Shown piece after piece: positions 1 through 29,022 of a DNA stretch of 64,000 nucleotides. The translations under genes were made by a program, and so were the position numbers. The notes under the pieces are model-generated. The model did not search any database. It saw nothing but the letters and a program-made list of their open reading frames with translations, and was not told the origin of the DNA. Numbering within the stretch: the stretch's first letter is position 1; every line of letters starts with the position of its first letter. Source of the stretch: Minisyncoccia bacterium. Lineage in GTDB: Bacteria; Patescibacteriota; Minisyncoccia; Phycocordibacterales; UBA9973. The DNA is taken from NCBI GenBank assembly GCA_038249055.1, contig JBBRWS010000001.1:14244-78243 (forward strand). The letters run 5' to 3'.

Positions 1-121
1 ATTTTGGAAGGATTTACTTGAAGCAGGAAGTTATGGTGAAGCACGCTCAAAAGGGAAAGTAAGAACAGAAGGCAAGGATTATATAGTGAAAAATGGGGAT
101 GTCGTAGAATTCAAAATTTAG
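1..121 (+). CDS. ychF: Ribosome-binding ATPase YchF, C-terminal fragment (TGS domain); gene starts upstream of window
   Basis: Frame 2 translates to FWKDLLEAGSYGEARSKGKVRTEGKDYIVKNGDVVEFKI-stop, typical YchF C-terminus (GKDYIV.DGDV..F). Confidence 0.55.
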   Translation, partial: FWKDLLEAGSYGEARSKGKVRTEGKDYIVKNGDVVEFKI

Positions 122-164
122 AGGTCCAACCTCGACTGATTTCGGAGGTTGTACCTCTAAATTT
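115..164. repeat. Palindromic element family A, copy A1 (reverse orientation relative to A2), ~19-20 bp arms aaatttagaggtccaacctc / gaggttgtacctctaaattt around an 11-nt asymmetric centre
   Basis: Inverted repeat read directly; shares core GAGGTCCAACCTC..GAGGTTGGACCTC with 3593-3639 and 28946-29022. Confidence 0.7.
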
Positions 165-195
165 TTTAATTTATCCTCGTAAAATTTATCAATAA

Positions 196-236
196 AAAAG
201 TCCTCGGATGAGGGAGTGATGGAAGCCACCCGGTAG
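196..236. repeat. GC-rich element family B, copy B1 (gtcctcggatgagggag..gaagccacccggt)
   Basis: GC-rich ~40-bp block in AT-rich spacer, about 80% identical to core of 16729-16767. Confidence 0.5.
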
Positions 237-293
237 GTCATTCTACTGAATGAGATATTTTTTATTGAAAAAATTTACTATGATTAAAGTCAT

Positions 294-851
294 ATGCAAA
301 ATAACTGGCTAAAAGTAATAAAGATTTTAAAAAACGATGGGGTAGTAGTGCTACCTACAGATACTTTGTACGGGTTAATTGCCAGTGCTTTTTCAAAGAA
401 AGCAATAGATAAAATATATAAAATAAAAGAAAGAGATAAAAGTAAACCTCTAATAGTTTTAATATCTAAAATTGAAGATTTAAAGAAATTTGGTATTAAA
501 GGTGATTTTTCAAAAGTATTTTTACCAAAAGTGAGTGTTTTACTTTCTAGTAGAAGTTTAAAATTTAAATATATTCATAGGGGGACTGGTGAAATAGCAT
601 TTAGGTTAATAAGTCAAAAAAATAAGAATTTATTTAATCTTGTAGAAAAAGTAGGACCAGTTGTTGCTCCTAGCGCAAATATTGAGAGCCTTAAGCCAGC
701 TGAGACAATAAAAGAAGCTCGTGGATATTTTGGGGATAATGTGGATTATTATATTAATGGAGGATTACGAAAATCTAAACCATCAACATTAATAAGAGTA
801 AAAAATGGAAACGTAGAAATATTAAGACAAGGAGAAGTAAAGATAAAATAA
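294..851 (+). CDS. tsaC: L-threonylcarbamoyladenylate synthase, YrdC/TsaC domain
   Basis: VVLPTDTLYGL motif and YrdC-like length (185 aa). Confidence 0.75.
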   Translation: MQNNWLKVIKILKNDGVVVLPTDTLYGLIASAFSKKAIDKIYKIKERDKSKPLIVLISKIEDLKKFGIKGDFSKVFLPKVSVLLSSRSLKFKYIHRGTGEIAFRLISQKNKNLFNLVEKVGPVVAPSANIESLKPAETIKEARGYFGDNVDYYINGGLRKSKPSTLIRVKNGNVEILRQGEVKIK

Positions 852-2694: not shown

Positions 2695-5694
2695 ATGAAA
2701 AATTACGATCATAAAAAAATTGAAAAAAAATGGCAAAAAGAATGGGATAAAAATGGAATCTATAAGACCGTTAATGGAAAAGGTAAAAAGATGTATGTTC
2801 TTGATATGTTTCCATATCCGTCTGGAGTGGGTCTTCATGTGGGACACCCTCGTGGTTATATAAGTAGTGATGTATATGCTCGTATGAAGAGTATGCAAGG
2901 CTATAATGTGCTTCACCCTATGGGATATGATGCGTTTGGTTTACCAGCTGAACAGTATGCATTGCAACATAAAATACATCCCAGAAAAGCCGTTTTAGAA
3001 AATGTTAAGACTTTTAAGAAACAGCTTTCTATTATAGGACTTTCTTATGATTGGTCTCGAGAAGTAAATACAACTGACCCCAAATATTATAAATGGACAC
3101 AATGGATATTTCTTCAAATTTATAATTCTTGGTATGACAAAACAAAAAATAAAGCACGACCTATAAAAGAGCTTGAAATTATTTTTGAAAAAAGTGGAAA
3201 TCTAAAAGTAAATGCTAGTTGTAGTTTTGATGTAAAATTTTTTTCAGCAAAGGTGTGGTCTAGTTTTTCAAAAAAAGATAAGCAAGATATTTTAATGAAA
3301 TATCGTCTTGCTTATGAAGGACACAGTGAAGTAAATTGGTGTGAAAAAATGGGCACAGTTTTGGCAAATGATGAAATAGTAAATGATGCAAAAGGAAATC
3401 CAGTTTCAGAAAGAGGAGGATTTCCTGTTGAAAAAAAAATAATGCGTCAATGGTTTATGAGGATTACTGCATATGCAGACAGGTTACTATCTGGTCTTGA
3501 GGGGTTAGATTGGAGTGATCATATAAAAGAAATTCAGAAAAATTGGATAGGGAAAAGTGAGGGTAGTGAATTAGAATTTAAGATTTCAATTTCTTCAGAG
3601 GTCCAACCTCCGAAGTCAGTTGAGGTTGGACCTCTGAAGGTATTCACAACTCGTGCCGATACTATTTTTGGTGCGACGTATGTAGTGCTTGCGCCGGAAC
3701 ATCCTTTGGTTAATACCTTAAAATCAAATATATTAAACCAAGAGGAAGTTATTAAATATATAAAGTTAATAAAAAATAAGACTGATGAAGATCGTACTAA
3801 AAATGATAAGGAAAAAACAGGCGTAGAATTAAGGGGGGTTATGGCTATTAATCCAGCCAATGGAAAAGAAGTACCAATTTGGATAGCTGATTATGTACTC
3901 GCTACTTATGGTACAGGTGCTGTTATGGCAGTGCCCGCGCATGATGAGCGAGATTTTGAATTTGCAAAAAAATACAATTTAAATATAAAGCAGTCAGTAA
4001 TGCCAGTTTATGGGAATAGTGTTAAAGGAGAGGAATATAGATATGCTGTCTCAGCTTTTGTTAAAAGACCATCAGATGGTAAATATTTATTTATTAAGGC
4101 AAAAGAATTTAATCAAATTTCAAAAGTTTATGGTGGAATAGAAGAAGGTGAAAATCCTGTACTAGCTGGAATTCGAGAAGTTTTTGAAGAAACTGGATAT
4201 AAAACAAAATCAGTTACAGATTTTGGATTTTCAATTCAATCACATTTTCACCATCCCCATAAAAAAGTAAACCGTAAATTGATTAGTGATTTAGTAGAGT
4301 TGGAATTAATAGATGAAGAACAATATGAGGTAGACGAAGAAGAAGCATTGCTACATGAAGTAGTGTGGCTTACTCTCGATCAAGCAAAGAAATTAATCAC
4401 AAATCCAAAAGAATTATATGATTTTGAAATACGTGAGGGAAAAAAGTGTTTTACTGATGATGGTGTTTTGTGTAATTCAGACAATTTTTCGGGAATCTCT
4501 TCAGAGGCTGCTCGCATGCAAATAACAGAATTTGTTGGTGGAAAAATAGTCACAAAATATAAAATGAGAGACGCAATATTTGCACGTCAAAGATATTGGG
4601 GTGAACCAATACCGTTAAGGCATAATCTTGATGGAACTATAACTGAATTTAAAGAAAAAGATTTACCCCTTGAATTACCAAATGTTAAATCTTATGTTTC
4701 TATCGGTACAGGTGAGTCGCCACTTGCAGGTGTAAAGTCATGGGTAAAAGAAGGTTTTGAAACAAACACAATGCCAGGATGGGCAGGTTCATCTTGGTAT
4801 TTTTTAAGATACATGGACCCACTAAATTCAAAACAATTTGCATCAAAAAAGGCTATTGAATATTGGAGAGAAGTTGATATGTATGTAGGTGGACAAGAAC
4901 ATGCAACTGGACATTTACTCTACTCACGTTTTTGGAATAATTTCTTGTTTGATTTAGGTTGTGTTCCATTTAAAGAGCCATTTAAAAGATTAAAAAATCA
5001 AGGTATGATTCTTGCTACGGATGGGCGTAAAATGAGTAAACGTTGGAATAATGTTATAAATCCAGATGATATTGTTAATAATTATGGAGCTGATACATTA
5101 CGCATATATGAAATGTTCATGGGGCCATTTGAACAAAGTTTACCTTGGTCAACTGACAGCATTATTGGCTCACGTAGATTTTTAGATCGTATATACAGAA
5201 TTCAGGAGAAAGTTACAAATACAAAAAGTATTTTAGGTGTAGAAAAAATTATTCATAAGACTCTTAAAAAAGTAAGTGAAGATATTGAAAATTTTGCTTT
5301 CAATACAGCAGTATCTTCTATGATGATTTTAGTAAATGAGATTGAAAAGAGTGAATTTATTGGAAAAAATGATTTTAAAATATTTTTACAGATGCTCGCT
5401 CCTTTTGCCCCTCATATTACAGAAGAACTATGGGGTAATATAGGGGAAAAGAAATCTATTCATAAAAGTTCATGGCCTAAATGGGATAAAAAGAAAATAA
5501 TAGACGATGTGATTAAAATCGCTGTTCAAGTTAATGGAAAAGTTCGTGCTGAAATAATAATATCAAAGGACATGACAGAAGAAGAAATAAAAGATGTATC
5601 TTTGAAAGACAAAAATATAGTAAATTGGATTTTAAATAAAGAAATAAAAAGAATTATTTATGTTCCAAATAGAATTGTAAATATTGTTGTCTAG
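2695..5694 (+). CDS. leuS: Leucyl-tRNA synthetase, unusually long (999 aa) with editing domain plus an embedded Nudix domain and a small palindromic insertion
   Basis: HVGH and KMSKR class I motifs, TTRADTIFGATY editing domain entry, AHDERDFEFAKKY. Confidence 0.95.
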   Translation: MKNYDHKKIEKKWQKEWDKNGIYKTVNGKGKKMYVLDMFPYPSGVGLHVGHPRGYISSDVYARMKSMQGYNVLHPMGYDAFGLPAEQYALQHKIHPRKAVLENVKTFKKQLSIIGLSYDWSREVNTTDPKYYKWTQWIFLQIYNSWYDKTKNKARPIKELEIIFEKSGNLKVNASCSFDVKFFSAKVWSSFSKKDKQDILMKYRLAYEGHSEVNWCEKMGTVLANDEIVNDAKGNPVSERGGFPVEKKIMRQWFMRITAYADRLLSGLEGLDWSDHIKEIQKNWIGKSEGSELEFKISISSEVQPPKSVEVGPLKVFTTRADTIFGATYVVLAPEHPLVNTLKSNILNQEEVIKYIKLIKNKTDEDRTKNDKEKTGVELRGVMAINPANGKEVPIWIADYVLATYGTGAVMAVPAHDERDFEFAKKYNLNIKQSVMPVYGNSVKGEEYRYAVSAFVKRPSDGKYLFIKAKEFNQISKVYGGIEEGENPVLAGIREVFEETGYKTKSVTDFGFSIQSHFHHPHKKVNRKLISDLVELELIDEEQYEVDEEEALLHEVVWLTLDQAKKLITNPKELYDFEIREGKKCFTDDGVLCNSDNFSGISSEAARMQITEFVGGKIVTKYKMRDAIFARQRYWGEPIPLRHNLDGTITEFKEKDLPLELPNVKSYVSIGTGESPLAGVKSWVKEGFETNTMPGWAGSSWYFLRYMDPLNSKQFASKKAIEYWREVDMYVGGQEHATGHLLYSRFWNNFLFDLGCVPFKEPFKRLKNQGMILATDGRKMSKRWNNVINPDDIVNNYGADTLRIYEMFMGPFEQSLPWSTDSIIGSRRFLDRIYRIQEKVTNTKSILGVEKIIHKTLKKVSEDIENFAFNTAVSSMMILVNEIEKSEFIGKNDFKIFLQMLAPFAPHITEELWGNIGEKKSIHKSSWPKWDKKKIIDDVIKIAVQVNGKVRAEIIISKDMTEEEIKDVSLKDKNIVNWILNKEIKRIIYVPNRIVNIVV
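3593..3639. repeat. Palindromic element family A, copy A2, inserted within leuS coding sequence (18-bp perfect arms cttcagaggtccaacctc / gaggttggacctctgaag)
   Basis: Perfect inverted repeat read directly; encodes EVQPPKSVEVGPLK in LeuS, which has no counterpart in E. coli LeuS at that position (about 10 residues longer than E. coli here). Confidence 0.75.
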
Positions 5695-16253: not shown

Positions 16254-17525
16254 TTATAAAGATAAATTGCCTTTGGCTTTAATAGTATTTATATTTTTTA
16301 TAAATTTTTTATTTTTAGCTTGGAAGTATCCCGCGATAGCTATCATTAGGGCATTGTCTCCAGTCAAACTTTTAGAAGGAAAATGAACTTTTACTTTTAA
16401 TTTATTTTCTTTAATTTTTTCAGACATTATTTTTTGCAGATAAGTATTTGCAGAAACACCACCCCCAACAATAAGAGTTTTTATTTTATATTCTTTAATT
16501 GCTTTAATTGTTTTATGAGTTAGTACTTCTACAACTGCATCCTCGAATTCGCAAGCTATTTTTTGCTTTATATCTATATCATTTAATATATTAGGATTTT
16601 GAATTTTTAAATCTCGCACAAGATATAGCACCGCTGTTTTTAACCCAGAAAATGAAAAATCATAATCTTTTGAATAAATCATAGGACGGGGTAAATTTAT
16701 TGCCTTCAGTAATATGCTTGATTTTTCAGGTCCTCGGACGAGGGAGGACGAGGAGCCAGACCGTGAAAAATCAAGCATATTACTTTCGTCCTTACGTTTT
16801 GCTGAAGCTAATTTTGAAATCTCTGGTCCTCCAGGATAAGGAAGTCCAAGCATACGAGCCACTTTGTCAAAAGCTTCGCCAGCCGCATCGTCTCTTGTTT
16901 GTCCAATTTTTTTATATTTTTGCCAATCTTTTACAATAACAAGTTCAGTATGTCCACCAGAAACTAAAAGAGAAAGCATTGGGAATTTAATGTTGTTTGT
17001 ATCTACTGTAAAATTTTTGGTTTTTTTAGGAAAAATAGAAAAGACATGTCCCTCCATATGATTAACAGAAACGATTGGTATATTCCAATAGGTACTGAGT
17101 GCTTTTGCAAAACTTATCCCTACCCATAGTGCAGGCTCTAAACCAGGTCCTGTTGTTACAGCAATAGCATCAATTTTAGGTTTTTTTATTAGAGGCATTA
17201 TTTCCATCCATCTATCTTGAATCTCGTTTTCTCTATCCAAAATTTTATGAACTTTATTTTCTAATTTATTATCAGATTGAGTCTTTTTATTTAAAGAATA
17301 CATTTTTGATTCTTTTAGTACTTTCACTAAAATGTGTAAAATATTTCTTCCATGTTCACGCTTGGCCATCATAGGGAAAACACCACCATATTGAGCATGA
17401 AGAGCTATTTGGGAAGATATTTCATTTCCAAGTATTTTAAATTTAATTTTTTTGCCTTCTTTTTGCGTATCTATTATAGACAAGGCTGTCTCATCACAGG
17501 AAGTTTCAATTGCTAATATTCTCAT
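16254..17525 (-). CDS. tsaD: tRNA N6-adenosine threonylcarbamoyltransferase TsaD (Kae1/Gcp), with ~27-aa insertion
   Basis: MRILAIETSCDETALSI.., ..GGPEISKLA.., DYDFSFSGLKTAV; 423 aa vs ~340 typical. Confidence 0.9.
   Translation of the reverse strand: MRILAIETSCDETALSIIDTQKEGKKIKFKILGNEISSQIALHAQYGGVFPMMAKREHGRNILHILVKVLKESKMYSLNKKTQSDNKLENKVHKILDRENEIQDRWMEIMPLIKKPKIDAIAVTTGPGLEPALWVGISFAKALSTYWNIPIVSVNHMEGHVFSIFPKKTKNFTVDTNNIKFPMLSLLVSGGHTELVIVKDWQKYKKIGQTRDDAAGEAFDKVARMLGLPYPGGPEISKLASAKRKDESNMLDFSRSGSSSSLVRGPEKSSILLKAINLPRPMIYSKDYDFSFSGLKTAVLYLVRDLKIQNPNILNDIDIKQKIACEFEDAVVEVLTHKTIKAIKEYKIKTLIVGGGVSANTYLQKIMSEKIKENKLKVKVHFPSKSLTGDNALMIAIAGYFQAKNKKFIKNINTIKAKGNLSL
16708..16788. repeat. 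Element family B, copy B2: 20-bp perfect inverted arms gtaatatgcttgatttttca / tgaaaaatcaagcatattac flanking 41-bp GC-rich core, in-frame within tsaD
   Basis: Read directly; 81 bp = 27 codons encoding MLDFSRSGSSSSLVRGPEKSSILLKA, which has no counterpart in E. coli TsaD. Confidence 0.7.
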
Positions 17526-28945: not shown

Positions 28946-29022
28946 ACCTACTTGTAGAGGTCAAACCTCCGAAACCAATTAGCCCAGTAGGTGATTGTAC
29001 TCAATCAAGGTTGGACCTCTAA
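28946..29022. repeat. Palindromic element family A, copy A3 (~23-bp arms cctacttgtagaggtcaaacctc / gaggttggacctctaaaagtagg with ~38-nt centre)
   Basis: Inverted repeat read directly between mrdA and greA. Confidence 0.65.

Follow-up and report, generated by a model that had tools for sequence, protein, structure and literature searches.

The Rickettsia palindromic elements (RPEs; Ogata et al. 2000, Science 290:347, according to the summary in PMC10969869) are small palindromic repeats, present in many copies per reduced genome, that lie in spacers and also in frame within unrelated housekeeping genes, where they encode a peptide at fold-compatible places. They form several families per lineage, and essential genes are among their hosts. 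These traits are shared by the repeat family described here, a multicopy palindrome found in frame in unrelated protein-coding genes, one copy of which lies in tsaD, an essential gene for tRNA modification, within the 64-kb stretch of DNA analyzed (the window). However, the present element is shorter (about 75 to 95 nt, compared with about 100 to 150 nt), its loop is conserved whereas its stems are free but covarying, it is read in five frames and in both orientations, in contrast to the single conserved peptide that each RPE encodes, and it shows strong turnover, with nested insertions at one loop. All real matches of the family were in CPR (Patescibacteria) MAGs and not in Rickettsia, and the likeness is one of description, of an analogue and not of a member.

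Miniature inverted-repeat elements (MITEs) that are cotranscribed with genes, such as Correia/NEMIS in Neisseria, ERIC/IRU in enterobacteria, and RUP/BOX in pneumococcus, are occasionally intragenic in the accounts given in PMC10969869 and PMC2759123. They too are nonautonomous dispersed repeats that form hairpins and measure about 100 nt, and they lie in short operon spacers, where they can affect termination and mRNA processing. In those elements, however, the terminal inverted repeats are conserved and target-site duplications occur (TA in Correia), whereas here the central core and not the arms is conserved among copies, no duplication could be delimited, and the intragenic share is about half. 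The REP/BIME sequences associated with RAYT (IS200/IS605-like Y1) proteins are likewise short, GC-rich, imperfect palindromes that are numerous between codirectional or convergent genes and are recognized as folded single strands, a model that would fit recognition by structure plus a short conserved motif. REPs, however, are extragenic and 20 to 40 nt long, with stems that are conserved and a GTAG-type tetranucleotide at the 5' end, whereas about half of the copies of the present family are intragenic. No RAYT-like gene was seen among the neighbors of these copies.

GC-rich "byp" inserts exist in yeast mitochondrial genes and are bypassed by the ribosome, whereas translation is indicated for the repeat described here. 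Together with the other yeast mitochondrial GC clusters and the palindromes of Nematomorpha mitochondria, they resemble it as GC-rich or perfect palindromic inserts in protein-coding genes of very AT-rich reduced genomes, but all of these are organellar, and those of Nematomorpha do not make up a dispersed family built on one core. In Nematomorpha, coding palindromes are found in protein genes (PMC6649704), and translation covering both arms is a further likeness to the mitochondrial palindromes. Our literature search found no paper on CPR/Patescibacteria with palindromic, MITE, or in-frame elements, and the family is apparently undescribed.

The tsaD copy and its host protein

The original prediction placed a second family of GC-rich palindromes in frame in tsaD, and the tsaD ORF does run through the element (Table 1). 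The arms of this hairpin-forming repeat are perfectly (100%) complementary, as had been proposed, but they are 21 nt long and not 20, and they are spaced by a core of 35 nt and not 41, so that the palindromic block is 77 bp (21 + 35 + 21) instead of 81 bp. The accompanying argument that 27 codons keep the frame rested on this wrong length; the unit that is gained and lost is 72 nt, or 24 codons, which is a multiple of 3. The in-frame palindromic element that had been proposed for leuS was likewise borne out, as a member of family A. Within the window, the tsaD arm sequence matched only the two arms themselves (2 matches; 0.06 expected), and the 17-mer GTCCTCGGAYGAGGGAG occurred exactly twice, at positions 200 and 16730 (0.01 expected). 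A covariance model built from 108 members of the family detected only two copies in the 64 kb.

Table 1. Coordinates of the repeat copies and associated features in the window
Feature	Position	Strand	Remarks
Element-A terminator hairpin	121..157		Precedes the intergenic copy
Second family member, intergenic "IG-2" type	170..287	+	Arms 170-199 / 258-287; 42.5 bits at 173-284
Long core variant of the IG-2 copy	200..257		58 nt
tsaC/YrdC-like gene	294..851	+	ORF; ATG at 294, 6 nt past the right arm of the intergenic copy
Family A element in leuS	3598..3634		In frame
tsaD host gene	16254..17525	-	Intact ORF, 423 aa; element in frame at residues 248-273; predicted peptide across the element, e.g., SGSSSSLVRGPEK
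Full-length family-model match	16698..16794	+	90.8 bits, E = 1.3e-20, model positions 1-97; takes in TTC/TTC internal-loop positions 16705-16707 and 16785-16787 and outer-stem remnants
Left arm, tsaD copy	16708..16728	.	AGTAATATGCTTGATTTTTCA; tsaD sense E267-L273 (EKSSILL)
GC-rich core, tsaD copy	16729..16763	+ (family orientation; antisense to tsaD)	GGTCCTCGGACGAGGGAGGACGAGGAGCCAGACCG; R255-P266 (RSGSSSSLVRGP)
Right arm, tsaD copy	16764..16784	.	TGAAAAATCAAGCATATTACT; tsaD sense S248-S254 (SNMLDFS)

The tsaD frame follows the antisense strand of the element and reads SNMLDFS-RSGSSSSLVRGP-EKSSILL. On the mRNA strand, the hairpin is predicted to fold at -37.5 kcal/mol and is far more stable than shuffled sequence (z = -5.7). 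The tsaD copy does not have the GC-rich stem and U run on the transcribed strand that mark an intrinsic terminator, and a search of both strands at positions 16500 to 17000 revealed no terminator-like site. It also does not resemble an intein or a self-splicing intron, being 77 nt long with no such domains and with frame constraints that indicate translation. Rfam returned no family match at the gathering score for the whole window or in permissive scans of both window copies and an intergenic copy, the only sub-threshold matches being to hairpins of eukaryotic miRNA precursors. A hammerhead-like reading of the motif CGGAYGAGG was rejected, there being no GAAA box and no Rfam support. A phage origin was also rejected, the 18-mer core being absent from 2.9 million viral contigs. 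Neither the two window copies nor a copy of the intergenic IG-1 subfamily contained a sigma-70-like promoter match.

The host protein is recognizable as TsaD by its PF00814 domain and its homologues, and it has the conserved motifs for metal and ATP as well as the fold of TsaD/Kae1. TsaDs in the PDB aligned to it on both flanks of residues 245 to 275. In the structure prediction suggested along with the original claim, the fold was otherwise that of a normal TsaD (TM-score of 0.80 to 0.84 to TsaD structures), and the pLDDT was below 50 solely at residues 251 to 272, in a loop away from the conserved motifs. Residues 248 to 273 are thus predicted to form a disordered loop at a place where canonical TsaD has a connection of 2 to 9 residues (~2 in solved TsaDs), and in this model the inserted loop would be tolerated at the protein surface with the enzyme fold intact. 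The alignment to PDB TsaDs also revealed further lineage-specific insertions in the TsaD of this clade, for example at residues 76 to 115.

Conserved core and covarying stems of the repeat family

Other copies, which the original prediction had called for, were found in related genomes. A scan of one genome per species, in which all copy numbers are lower bounds, yielded at least 109 stretches, all but 2 of them from about 46 CPR MAGs (Paceibacteria/Nomurabacteria), with up to at least 11 copies per MAG among the stretches listed. Judging from these relatives, the bacterium of the window is probably Nomurabacteria/Paceibacteria-like. The outermost part of the element is a stem of 5 bp, followed inward by a symmetric internal loop of 3x3 pyrimidines (TWC/TYC), by ~21 bp of stem in which the sequence is free but pairing is kept, by a 1-nt bulge, and by a near-invariant 32-nt GC-rich core, GTCCTCGGAYGAGGGAGGACGAGGRGCCAGAC. 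The flanks CTTCRC ... CTWCGY recur in all copies and therefore belong to the element, as its internal loop and outer stem. Core positions outside those fixed in the search pattern were 83% to 100% conserved, although values from pattern-found copies are inflated by ascertainment and only the protein-found tsaD copies L001 and L003 are unbiased in this respect. The tsaD core of the window was identical to those of L003 and L033 at 35/35 positions and to that of L001 at 33/35, whereas the flanking tsaD DNA was 74% to 81% identical, and the L003 core lies in the opposite orientation. This comparison suggests that the core is conserved at the nucleotide and not the protein level.

The arms differ from locus to locus and are conserved only inside two intergenic subfamilies, but they remain complementary. 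Among 108 distinct copies, 76% of arm cells were paired, compared with 53% in shuffles and 39% to 48% when the partner was slid, and double-sided changes numbered 752 against 264 expected. The covariation score was 0.50 (0.15 expected), a value reached by 0 of 500 shuffles. Base pairing inside the core was considered and dropped: positions 9 (Y) and 20 (R) are weakly associated (CG, 45; TA, 14; TG, 45; CA, 2), too weakly to define a structure.

The second window copy had been proposed as a sister lacking the tsaD arms. It is a member of the family and does lack those arms, but its core begins at position 200 and not 196, and it has arms of its own, each 30 nt long and 83% complementary, around a longer core. 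This core variant contains an extra small hairpin (TCATTC-TACT-GAATGA) that shows compensatory changes with respect to L012 and L044. An IG-2-subfamily element, L111, occupies the matching place upstream of a tsaC orthologue (MNNNYKK...VVVLPTDTLYG) in another genome.

Placement in genes and spacers and turnover at individual sites

Slightly more than half of the copies (55/108) lie inside long ORFs, belonging to roughly 20 different gene families. Their hosts include TGT, RNase HII, UvrA/B/C, LigA, PolA, the CCA-adding enzyme, TruB, TrmD, MnmA, Dus, LeuRS, MurB, peptidase M1, Nramp, and a VirD4-like protein. Both orientations and five of the six reading frames are used, with the peptides RSSDEGGRGARP, GPRTREDEEPDH, VLGRGRTRGQT, SGSSSSLVRGP, and GLAPRPPSSED; the sole unused frame is the hydrophobic one (VWLLVLPRP). 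Whichever frame is used, the host frame is open through the arms and core in every intragenic copy. In sense-oriented intragenic copies, A.C mismatches in the arms outnumber G.U mismatches (85 versus 35), so that the mRNA strand folds worse than its complement. A control of orientation by replication direction was unsupported for the antisense intragenic copies, whose neighboring genes were divided 5 versus 6 per strand.

Of the intergenic copies, 43/57 are flanked by codirectional genes and have their core on the sense strand, and spacer copies end very regularly 6 to 16 nt ahead of the next ATG. The reverse strand of the core is a canonical terminator-like sequence, GTCCTCCCTCATCCGAGGAC followed by a T run, and in the IG-1 copies this motif is confined to the strand antisense to the flanking genes. 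Only 1 of 46 genes had a Shine-Dalgarno sequence, and the genome is one without such sites. Several species have copies at orthologous sites, for example in RNase HII and TGT and upstream of atpD, gap, rbfA, and tsaC; orthologous spacers with copies belong to operons of highly expressed genes (atpA-atpG-atpD, gap, recA, infB, and frr). The arms of copies at orthologous sites are 0.68 to 0.73 identical and have drifted as far as the host gene, indicating that these copies are old. The neighbors of the ~110 copies were housekeeping genes, and no transposase, recombinase, or other candidate mobilizing gene was seen adjoining any copy.

At the tsaD site, orthologues differing by only 3% to 10% are in different states: some are filled, in one orientation or the other or with a nested insert, and others have a deletion remnant, another family, or an empty site. 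The comparison of TsaD orthologues proposed with the original claim thus showed that the inserted peptide is not conserved. The filled P0018 differs from the empty P0042 and P0046 (94% amino acid identity) in a stretch of exactly 72 nt, which takes in the core and the two arms. The question of whether the arms belong to the element, also raised at the outset, is answered by this close relative: they lie within the gained or lost unit, although their sequence differs by locus. The boundaries in this comparison are ambiguous by 5 to 8 nt (AAAGT ... ATAAT), and no target-site duplication is definable. The idea that the arms are copies of the target was rejected, both being inside the 72-nt indel, with the possible exception of the outermost 5 to 8 nt or fewer. 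In P0062/L125, only ...CCAAACCATGAAAAT and the right arm remain, and since such one-arm states keep a piece of the core, they are deletion remnants. In UvrC and TGT, copies are found at differing positions and in differing orientations between genomes.

Origin of the repeat and alternative explanations

The tsaD block is probably one copy of a small noncoding, hairpin-forming repeat family that is mobile now or was so recently, an analogue of the RPEs; we put the probability of this reading as a whole at roughly 0.7. Such an element would move as a folded single strand, its conserved core being recognized by a trans-acting protein and the stem serving as a mere scaffold. Two processes could uphold arm complementarity: selection on the hairpin, or correction by template switching inside the palindrome. 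Copies would land in, or survive only in, short codirectional spacers or permissive surface loops of proteins, and those in spacers would keep the orientation that creates no terminator. Because the core is almost without stop codons, copies inside genes would simply be translated. The element would be selfish rather than useful.

Several observations speak against the mobile repeat. MITEs conserve their terminal repeats, whereas here the arms are variable and the loop is conserved. A dead, old selfish copy would be expected to lose its core as well, and the persistence of the core in old copies argues for a continuing sequence-specific constraint, by function or concerted evolution. The regular end point before the start codon could reflect function instead of a tolerance filter. 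In addition, no mobilizing gene lies beside the copies, target-site duplications are not definable, and many copies are old occupants of orthologous sites.

CPR bacteria, with genomes among the smallest and most streamlined in bacteria, nevertheless carry several families of GC-rich hairpins in essential translation and DNA repair genes, and these families turn over quickly. The phenomenon would reach a different and very large radiation than Rickettsia. In-frame repeats offer a ready explanation for many of the insertions that lengthen CPR proteins relative to their homologues, and they call for caution from annotators and phylogeneticists, such loops not being homologous protein characters. 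The invariant loop, the free but paired stems, and the fixed internal loop point to a recognition machinery, and the intergenic copies provide a handle on operon expression in organisms without Shine-Dalgarno sites.

A different reading, which overlaps in part with the selfish repeat and does not exclude it, is that of a domesticated hairpin, a structured RNA or DNA module of the host whose core binds a host factor and whose copies in genes are tolerated spill-over. It could act in intercistronic mRNA processing or stabilization, as hairpins of the RNase III type do, or bring stop and start codons together for reinitiation without Shine-Dalgarno sequences. The near-invariant core with arms that drift yet stay paired, the orthologous spacers occupied in many species in highly expressed operons, the spacing of 6 to 16 nt to the ATG, the scarcity of Shine-Dalgarno sequences, and the compensated extra hairpin of the long core variant, which is typical of structured RNAs, are all in its favor. 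However, an intercistronic role is inapplicable to the half of the copies that are found, in both orientations and in several frames, within coding sequences unrelated to one another. The excess of A.C mismatches, which makes the mRNA strand the worse folder, the absence of an Rfam match, and the speed with which the tsaD site gains and loses the element also tell against it, and we regard domestication as possible but the less probable account.

More tentatively, the family may be a "stem-agnostic" mobile or invertible hairpin. A trans-acting enzyme, still active in these minimal genomes, would read the 32-nt loop, together with the 3x3 internal loop 21 bp below it as a ruler, on the folded single strand, and the hairpin as a whole would be inserted, excised, or flipped by it; intergenic copies may have been co-opted as intercistronic RNA modules. 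This reading, on the whole a rather doubtful one, would account for identical cores with drifting stems, for the reoccupied and nested loops of TsaD, LeuRS, TGT, and UvrC, and for 72-nt units that come and go.

Inversion of the core alone is unlikely. Like an intragenic inverton, the tsaD copy has inverted repeats around a short coding segment, and the 21-bp arms could let the 35-nt core flip, with isoforms ...FS-RSGSSSSLVRGP-EK... and ...FS-GPRTREDEEPDR-EK.... Both orientations are open in the tsaD frame, a flip leaves length and frame unchanged, and TsaD orthologues show both orientations at one place with related arm peptides (e.g., ELFDFS/ELFKFS). However, the closest pairs of opposite orientation (P0068/P0079 and P0003/P0005) differ in their arms and are not simple flips, and no invertase gene was seen nearby. 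Moreover, the loop is predicted to be disordered and away from the conserved motifs, so that the isoforms would have no obvious functional difference, and most family members, intergenic or in other genes, have a single orientation and are not placed as switches.

It is very improbable that the residues never appear in TsaD because the hairpin is cut from the mRNA and the ends are rejoined, or because the ribosome hops over it. The 21-bp perfect stem is a plausible substrate for a double-strand-specific RNase, and the yeast byp inserts are a precedent for bypass. However, the frames kept open through arms and core in all intragenic copies, the gain or loss of a unit divisible by 3, and the avoidance of the hydrophobic frame alone make sense only if the element is translated. 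Also lacking are a matched pair of take-off and landing codons and a stop codon at the base of the hairpin.

Equally hard to credit is a regulatory link within the t6A pathway, in which the copies upstream of tsaC (sense) and in tsaD (antisense) would couple both genes through complementary RNAs (17 nt, with one G.U). This complementarity is directly readable from the two window sequences, and in JAENWX01 the L111 copy upstream of tsaC coexists with a TsaD (P0036) whose insert is antisense oriented. But complementarity of this kind is expected of any dispersed repeat present in both orientations, dozens of unrelated genes have the same core upstream of them or within them, TsaD orthologues hold the element in either orientation or none, and the data suggest no covariation of the two copies across genomes.

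Finally, the other insertions in the TsaD of this clade would suit an ordinary lineage-specific insertion selected at the protein level, but that reading and an assembly artifact can be practically dismissed, as the same nucleotides occur both in about 20 gene families, where five frames are used, and in noncoding spacers, the opposite orientation in orthologues gives an unrelated peptide, and the same tsaD site carries the element in independent NCBI, JGI, ENA, and Logan assemblies.

The tsaD copy and its host protein

In the AT-rich window (26-35% GC), the hairpin repeat in tsaD, a copy of family B, consists of 21-nt inverted arms (AGTAATATGCTTGATTTTTCA / TGAAAAATCAAGCATATTACT) and a GC-rich core of 35 nt (GGTCCTCGGACGAGGGAGGACGAGGAGCCAGACCG). 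The 81 bp, 41-bp core, and 27 codons of the original prediction were miscounts, as the palindrome is 77 bp long, but the insertion is in frame as proposed, with the tsaD open reading frame (ORF) uninterrupted across it. The region folds at -37.5 and -41.2 kcal/mol on the two strands, far more stably than shuffled sequence (z ~ -6), and retains TTC/TTC at the internal-loop positions of the family. In the tsaD sense, the element reads S248-NMLDFS / RSGSSSSLVRGP / EKSSIL-L273. The arm sequence had no further occurrence in the 64-kb window, and the 17-mer GTCCTCGGAYGAGGGAG is present at two sites, 200 and 16730 (0.01 expected). The 10 innermost arm nucleotides (16719 to 16728, TGATTTTTCA, encoding DFS) recur as their complement 56 nt away at 16653 to 16662, where tsaD encodes its conserved DYDFSFSG motif; this is probably a coincidence of AT-rich coding sequence.

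Features of the window related to the repeat families
Feature	Position	Strand	Description
Family A copy	121-157		Bidirectional terminator-like hairpin, directly after ychF
Family B, second copy	170-287		IG-2 type with long core; arms 30 nt, 83% complementary; folds as one long hairpin
leuS ORF	2695-5694		
Family A copy	3598-3634		In frame within leuS
tsaD	16254-17525	minus	423-aa ORF, element included
Family B, tsaD copy	16708-16784		Perfect inverted repeat
Insert at TsaD residues 76-115	about 17181-17300		About 40 residues
Family A copy	28957-29019		

Along its whole length, the ORF product is similar to TsaD/Kae1 proteins (PF00814). Alignments to solved TsaD structures lie on either side of residues 245 to 275, where Aquifex TsaD has 2 residues. 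In an AlphaFold model based on 37 homologs (mean pLDDT, 82), values below 50 were confined to residues 251 to 272, and target-normalised TM-scores to TsaD structures were 0.80 to 0.84; on these grounds, the insert is predicted to be a disordered excursion from an intact TsaD fold. The insert at residues 76 to 115, absent from all solved TsaDs, is helical by prediction. It is kept across the TsaDs of the clade and is therefore an ordinary lineage-specific insertion, not a repeat element.

Turnover at the TsaD loop

Among the closest 120 TsaDs, the loop was empty (9 to 14 residues), held family B in the orientation of the window (..DFSRSGSSSSLVRGPEK..) or in the opposite one (..FSGPRTREDEEPDRE..), held family B in one of these orientations with another GC-rich insert nested inside it, or contained a deletion remnant of the element. 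In others, it was occupied by other insert families: A (..QPEVGPL..), C (VVPGSLAQA.GPSTSKK....LLCADG), or D (..ARARGIFQQKNIRA..). These states have a mosaic distribution on the TsaD tree. Proteins P0068 and P0079 carry opposite orientations at 3% distance, and P0018 (filled) and P0042 (empty) are 6% apart. The core in the tsaD of locus L003, found by protein similarity, is identical to that of the window at 35/35 positions and inverted, and that of L001 is identical at 33/35 in the same orientation, whereas the surrounding tsaD DNA is merely 74 to 81% identical. P0018 differs from P0042 and P0046 (94% amino acid identity; flanks, ~80% nucleotide identity) by one gap of exactly 72 nt that holds both arms and the core, which places the arms inside the unit gained or lost. 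The insert is thus no protein feature of TsaD conserved among orthologs. At the sequence level, these comparisons show that the element has been gained, lost, inverted, nested, and replaced here over short evolutionary distances.

Family B across genomes

The search for other B-like copies, in which one genome for each species was scanned with an exact pattern, revealed a dispersed family, with at least 109 matched stretches. Two of the 109 listed, one on a contig from Chloroflexi and one on a contig from an actinomycete, appear to be chance matches; the others lie in ~46 MAGs labelled, as deposited, Paceibacteria, Paceibacterota, Nomurabacteria, or generic CPR, with up to at least 11 copies per MAG. 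After duplicate removal, 108 canonical copies among the matches listed were aligned. Core positions left free by the pattern were 83 to 100% conserved in these matches, a figure inflated by ascertainment; the pattern also misses diverged copies. Arm sequences vary between copies, yet pair: standard pairs fill 76% of arm cells (53% in shuffles; 39 to 48% with slid partners), 752 double-sided changes were observed against 264 expected, and the covariation score of 0.50 (versus 0.15) was reached by 0 of 500 shuffles. A symmetric 3x3 internal loop (TWC/TYC) is conserved 21 bp below the core, the outer stem has 5 bp (AAAGC/GCTTT), and a 1-nt bulge lies on the 3' side of the core; core variants of 36 nt (...GAGGGGGACGGGAGCCRGTGCCAGAC) and of 58 nt, the latter including an additional small hairpin, also occur. 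Family B is thus a family of hairpin-forming repeats, with nucleotide-level conservation in the loop and covariation in the stems. Its covariance model matched the window exactly twice, at 16698 to 16794 (90.8 bits) and 173 to 284 (42.5 bits). No Rfam family matched the element, and the core was found in no viral contig. At locus L100 (5707 to 5776), a Nextera adapter (CTGTCTCTTATACACATCT) directly follows a family B core and forms the end of the contig. This is a broken assembly or an artefact at the hairpin, and it recalls that MAG assemblies are fragmented by these repeats.

Among the matches listed, 55 of the 108 copies lie within long ORFs; the coding strand carries the core in 42 of them, and the core is antisense in the other 13, the class of the window tsaD copy. 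They use five of the six reading frames, the sole unused one being hydrophobic. Their hosts include TGT, CCA-adding enzyme, TruB, TrmD, MnmA, Dus, LeuRS, TsaD, RNase HII, UvrA, UvrB, UvrC, LigA, Pol I, MurB, peptidase M1, Nramp, and a VirD4-like ATPase. The insert elongates or splits the Pfam matches of its hosts, and in UvrC and TGT, its position and orientation differ between genomes. Judged from these ORFs, the element is read through by translation in many genes. Arm mismatches in sense-oriented intragenic copies (alignment A2) are more often A.C (85) than G.U (35); therefore, the strand complementary to the mRNA, and not the mRNA strand, would fold better.

About half of the copies are intergenic and belong mainly to the subfamilies IG-1 (ACAAATTATATTCTRAAAAAA ... 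TTTTTTYATAAAATAATTTGT) and IG-2 (GTAAACTTTATCAATAAAAAA ... TTTTTTCTTGAAAAAGTTTRC), in both of which the arms are conserved. Among the matches listed, 43 of 57 have co-directional genes on both sides and carry the core on the sense strand of these genes; they start 0 to 30 nt past the upstream stop and end 6 to 16 nt short of the next ATG. Intergenic copies are flanked by ordinary genes (atpA/G/D, gap, recA, infB, frr, rbfA, ileS, thrS, argS, prfA, and tsaC). On its antisense strand, the core reads like a canonical terminator, with a T run after GTCCTCCCTCATCCGAGGAC, which offers a simple explanation for the biased orientation within operons. The second window copy had been described as a sister copy without the arms; the tsaD-copy arms are indeed absent, but the description is misleading, as it has arms of its own. 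Relative to L012 and L044, compensatory changes are seen in its additional small hairpin. It ends 6 nt before a tsaC-like ATG at 294, and L111 has an orthologous IG-2 copy upstream of its own tsaC. Shine-Dalgarno-like motifs precede only 1 of 46 genes (window ORFs of at least 150 aa). In many window genes, a TATAAT-like box lies 6 to 12 nt upstream of the ATG, suggesting that their mRNAs have no leader or a very short one.

Nature of the element and other insert families

Full-text searches found no paper that links palindromic, MITE-like, or in-frame elements to CPR/Patescibacteria. By behaviour, the closest known system is the Rickettsia palindromic elements, which are likewise inserted in frame in many housekeeping genes of a reduced genome (PMC10969869); other coding palindromes occur in organelles (PMC6649704). 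Family B differs in phylum and size, in its conserved loop and variable stem, and in being found in both orientations and read in five frames. It lacks the conserved terminal repeats of MITEs and the extragenic location of REPs.

We infer that the element is a selfish, non-autonomous mobile element. Copies would persist solely where harmless: in frame within surface loops, or within spacers, where they lie ahead of the minimal initiation region and in the non-terminating orientation. The invariant core and its fixed distance to the internal loop suggest that a trans-acting protein recognises the folded single strand; no candidate gene was seen among the examined neighbours of any copy. Either selection for the hairpin or template-switch correction inside the palindrome could maintain the complementarity of the arms. 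A domesticated or functional element, which partly overlaps the selfish reading, is a substantial alternative: many old copies are shared between orthologs, their cores intact although their arms have diverged as much as the host genes, and the intergenic end point is strikingly regular in a genome nearly devoid of Shine-Dalgarno sites. Together with the A.C excess, this argues for more than "dead selfish DNA," and we keep the functional alternative beside the selfish one.

Family A is also a hairpin (GAGGTCCAACCTC ... GAGGTTGKACCTC), and its leuS copy bears out the predicted in-frame palindromic insertion there. Its translation occupies the TsaD loop of P0003, P0017, P0043, P0087, L118, and L121. 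At least three further families, C (VVPGSLAQA.GPSTSKK.S..LLCADG), D (LG.L.SATARARGIFQQKNIRA), and E (PLSRGGLKSRGGCIPPPPSGTPQEE), identified here as TsaD peptides, occur in the loops of L115, L122, L127, L128, L130, L132, L133, L135, L138, L140, P0007 to P0009, and P0055. LeuRS is a second insertion hotspot: leuS of L111 (2623 to 5628) has a family B copy at 3534 to 3630, the same offset as family A in the window leuS (~3598). Another GC-rich hairpin (GCCTGCCCGACCTTGCGGTTGTTCGGGCGGG) is nested in the core of that copy, and similar nested inserts are present in the TsaD of L123, P0056, and P0079.
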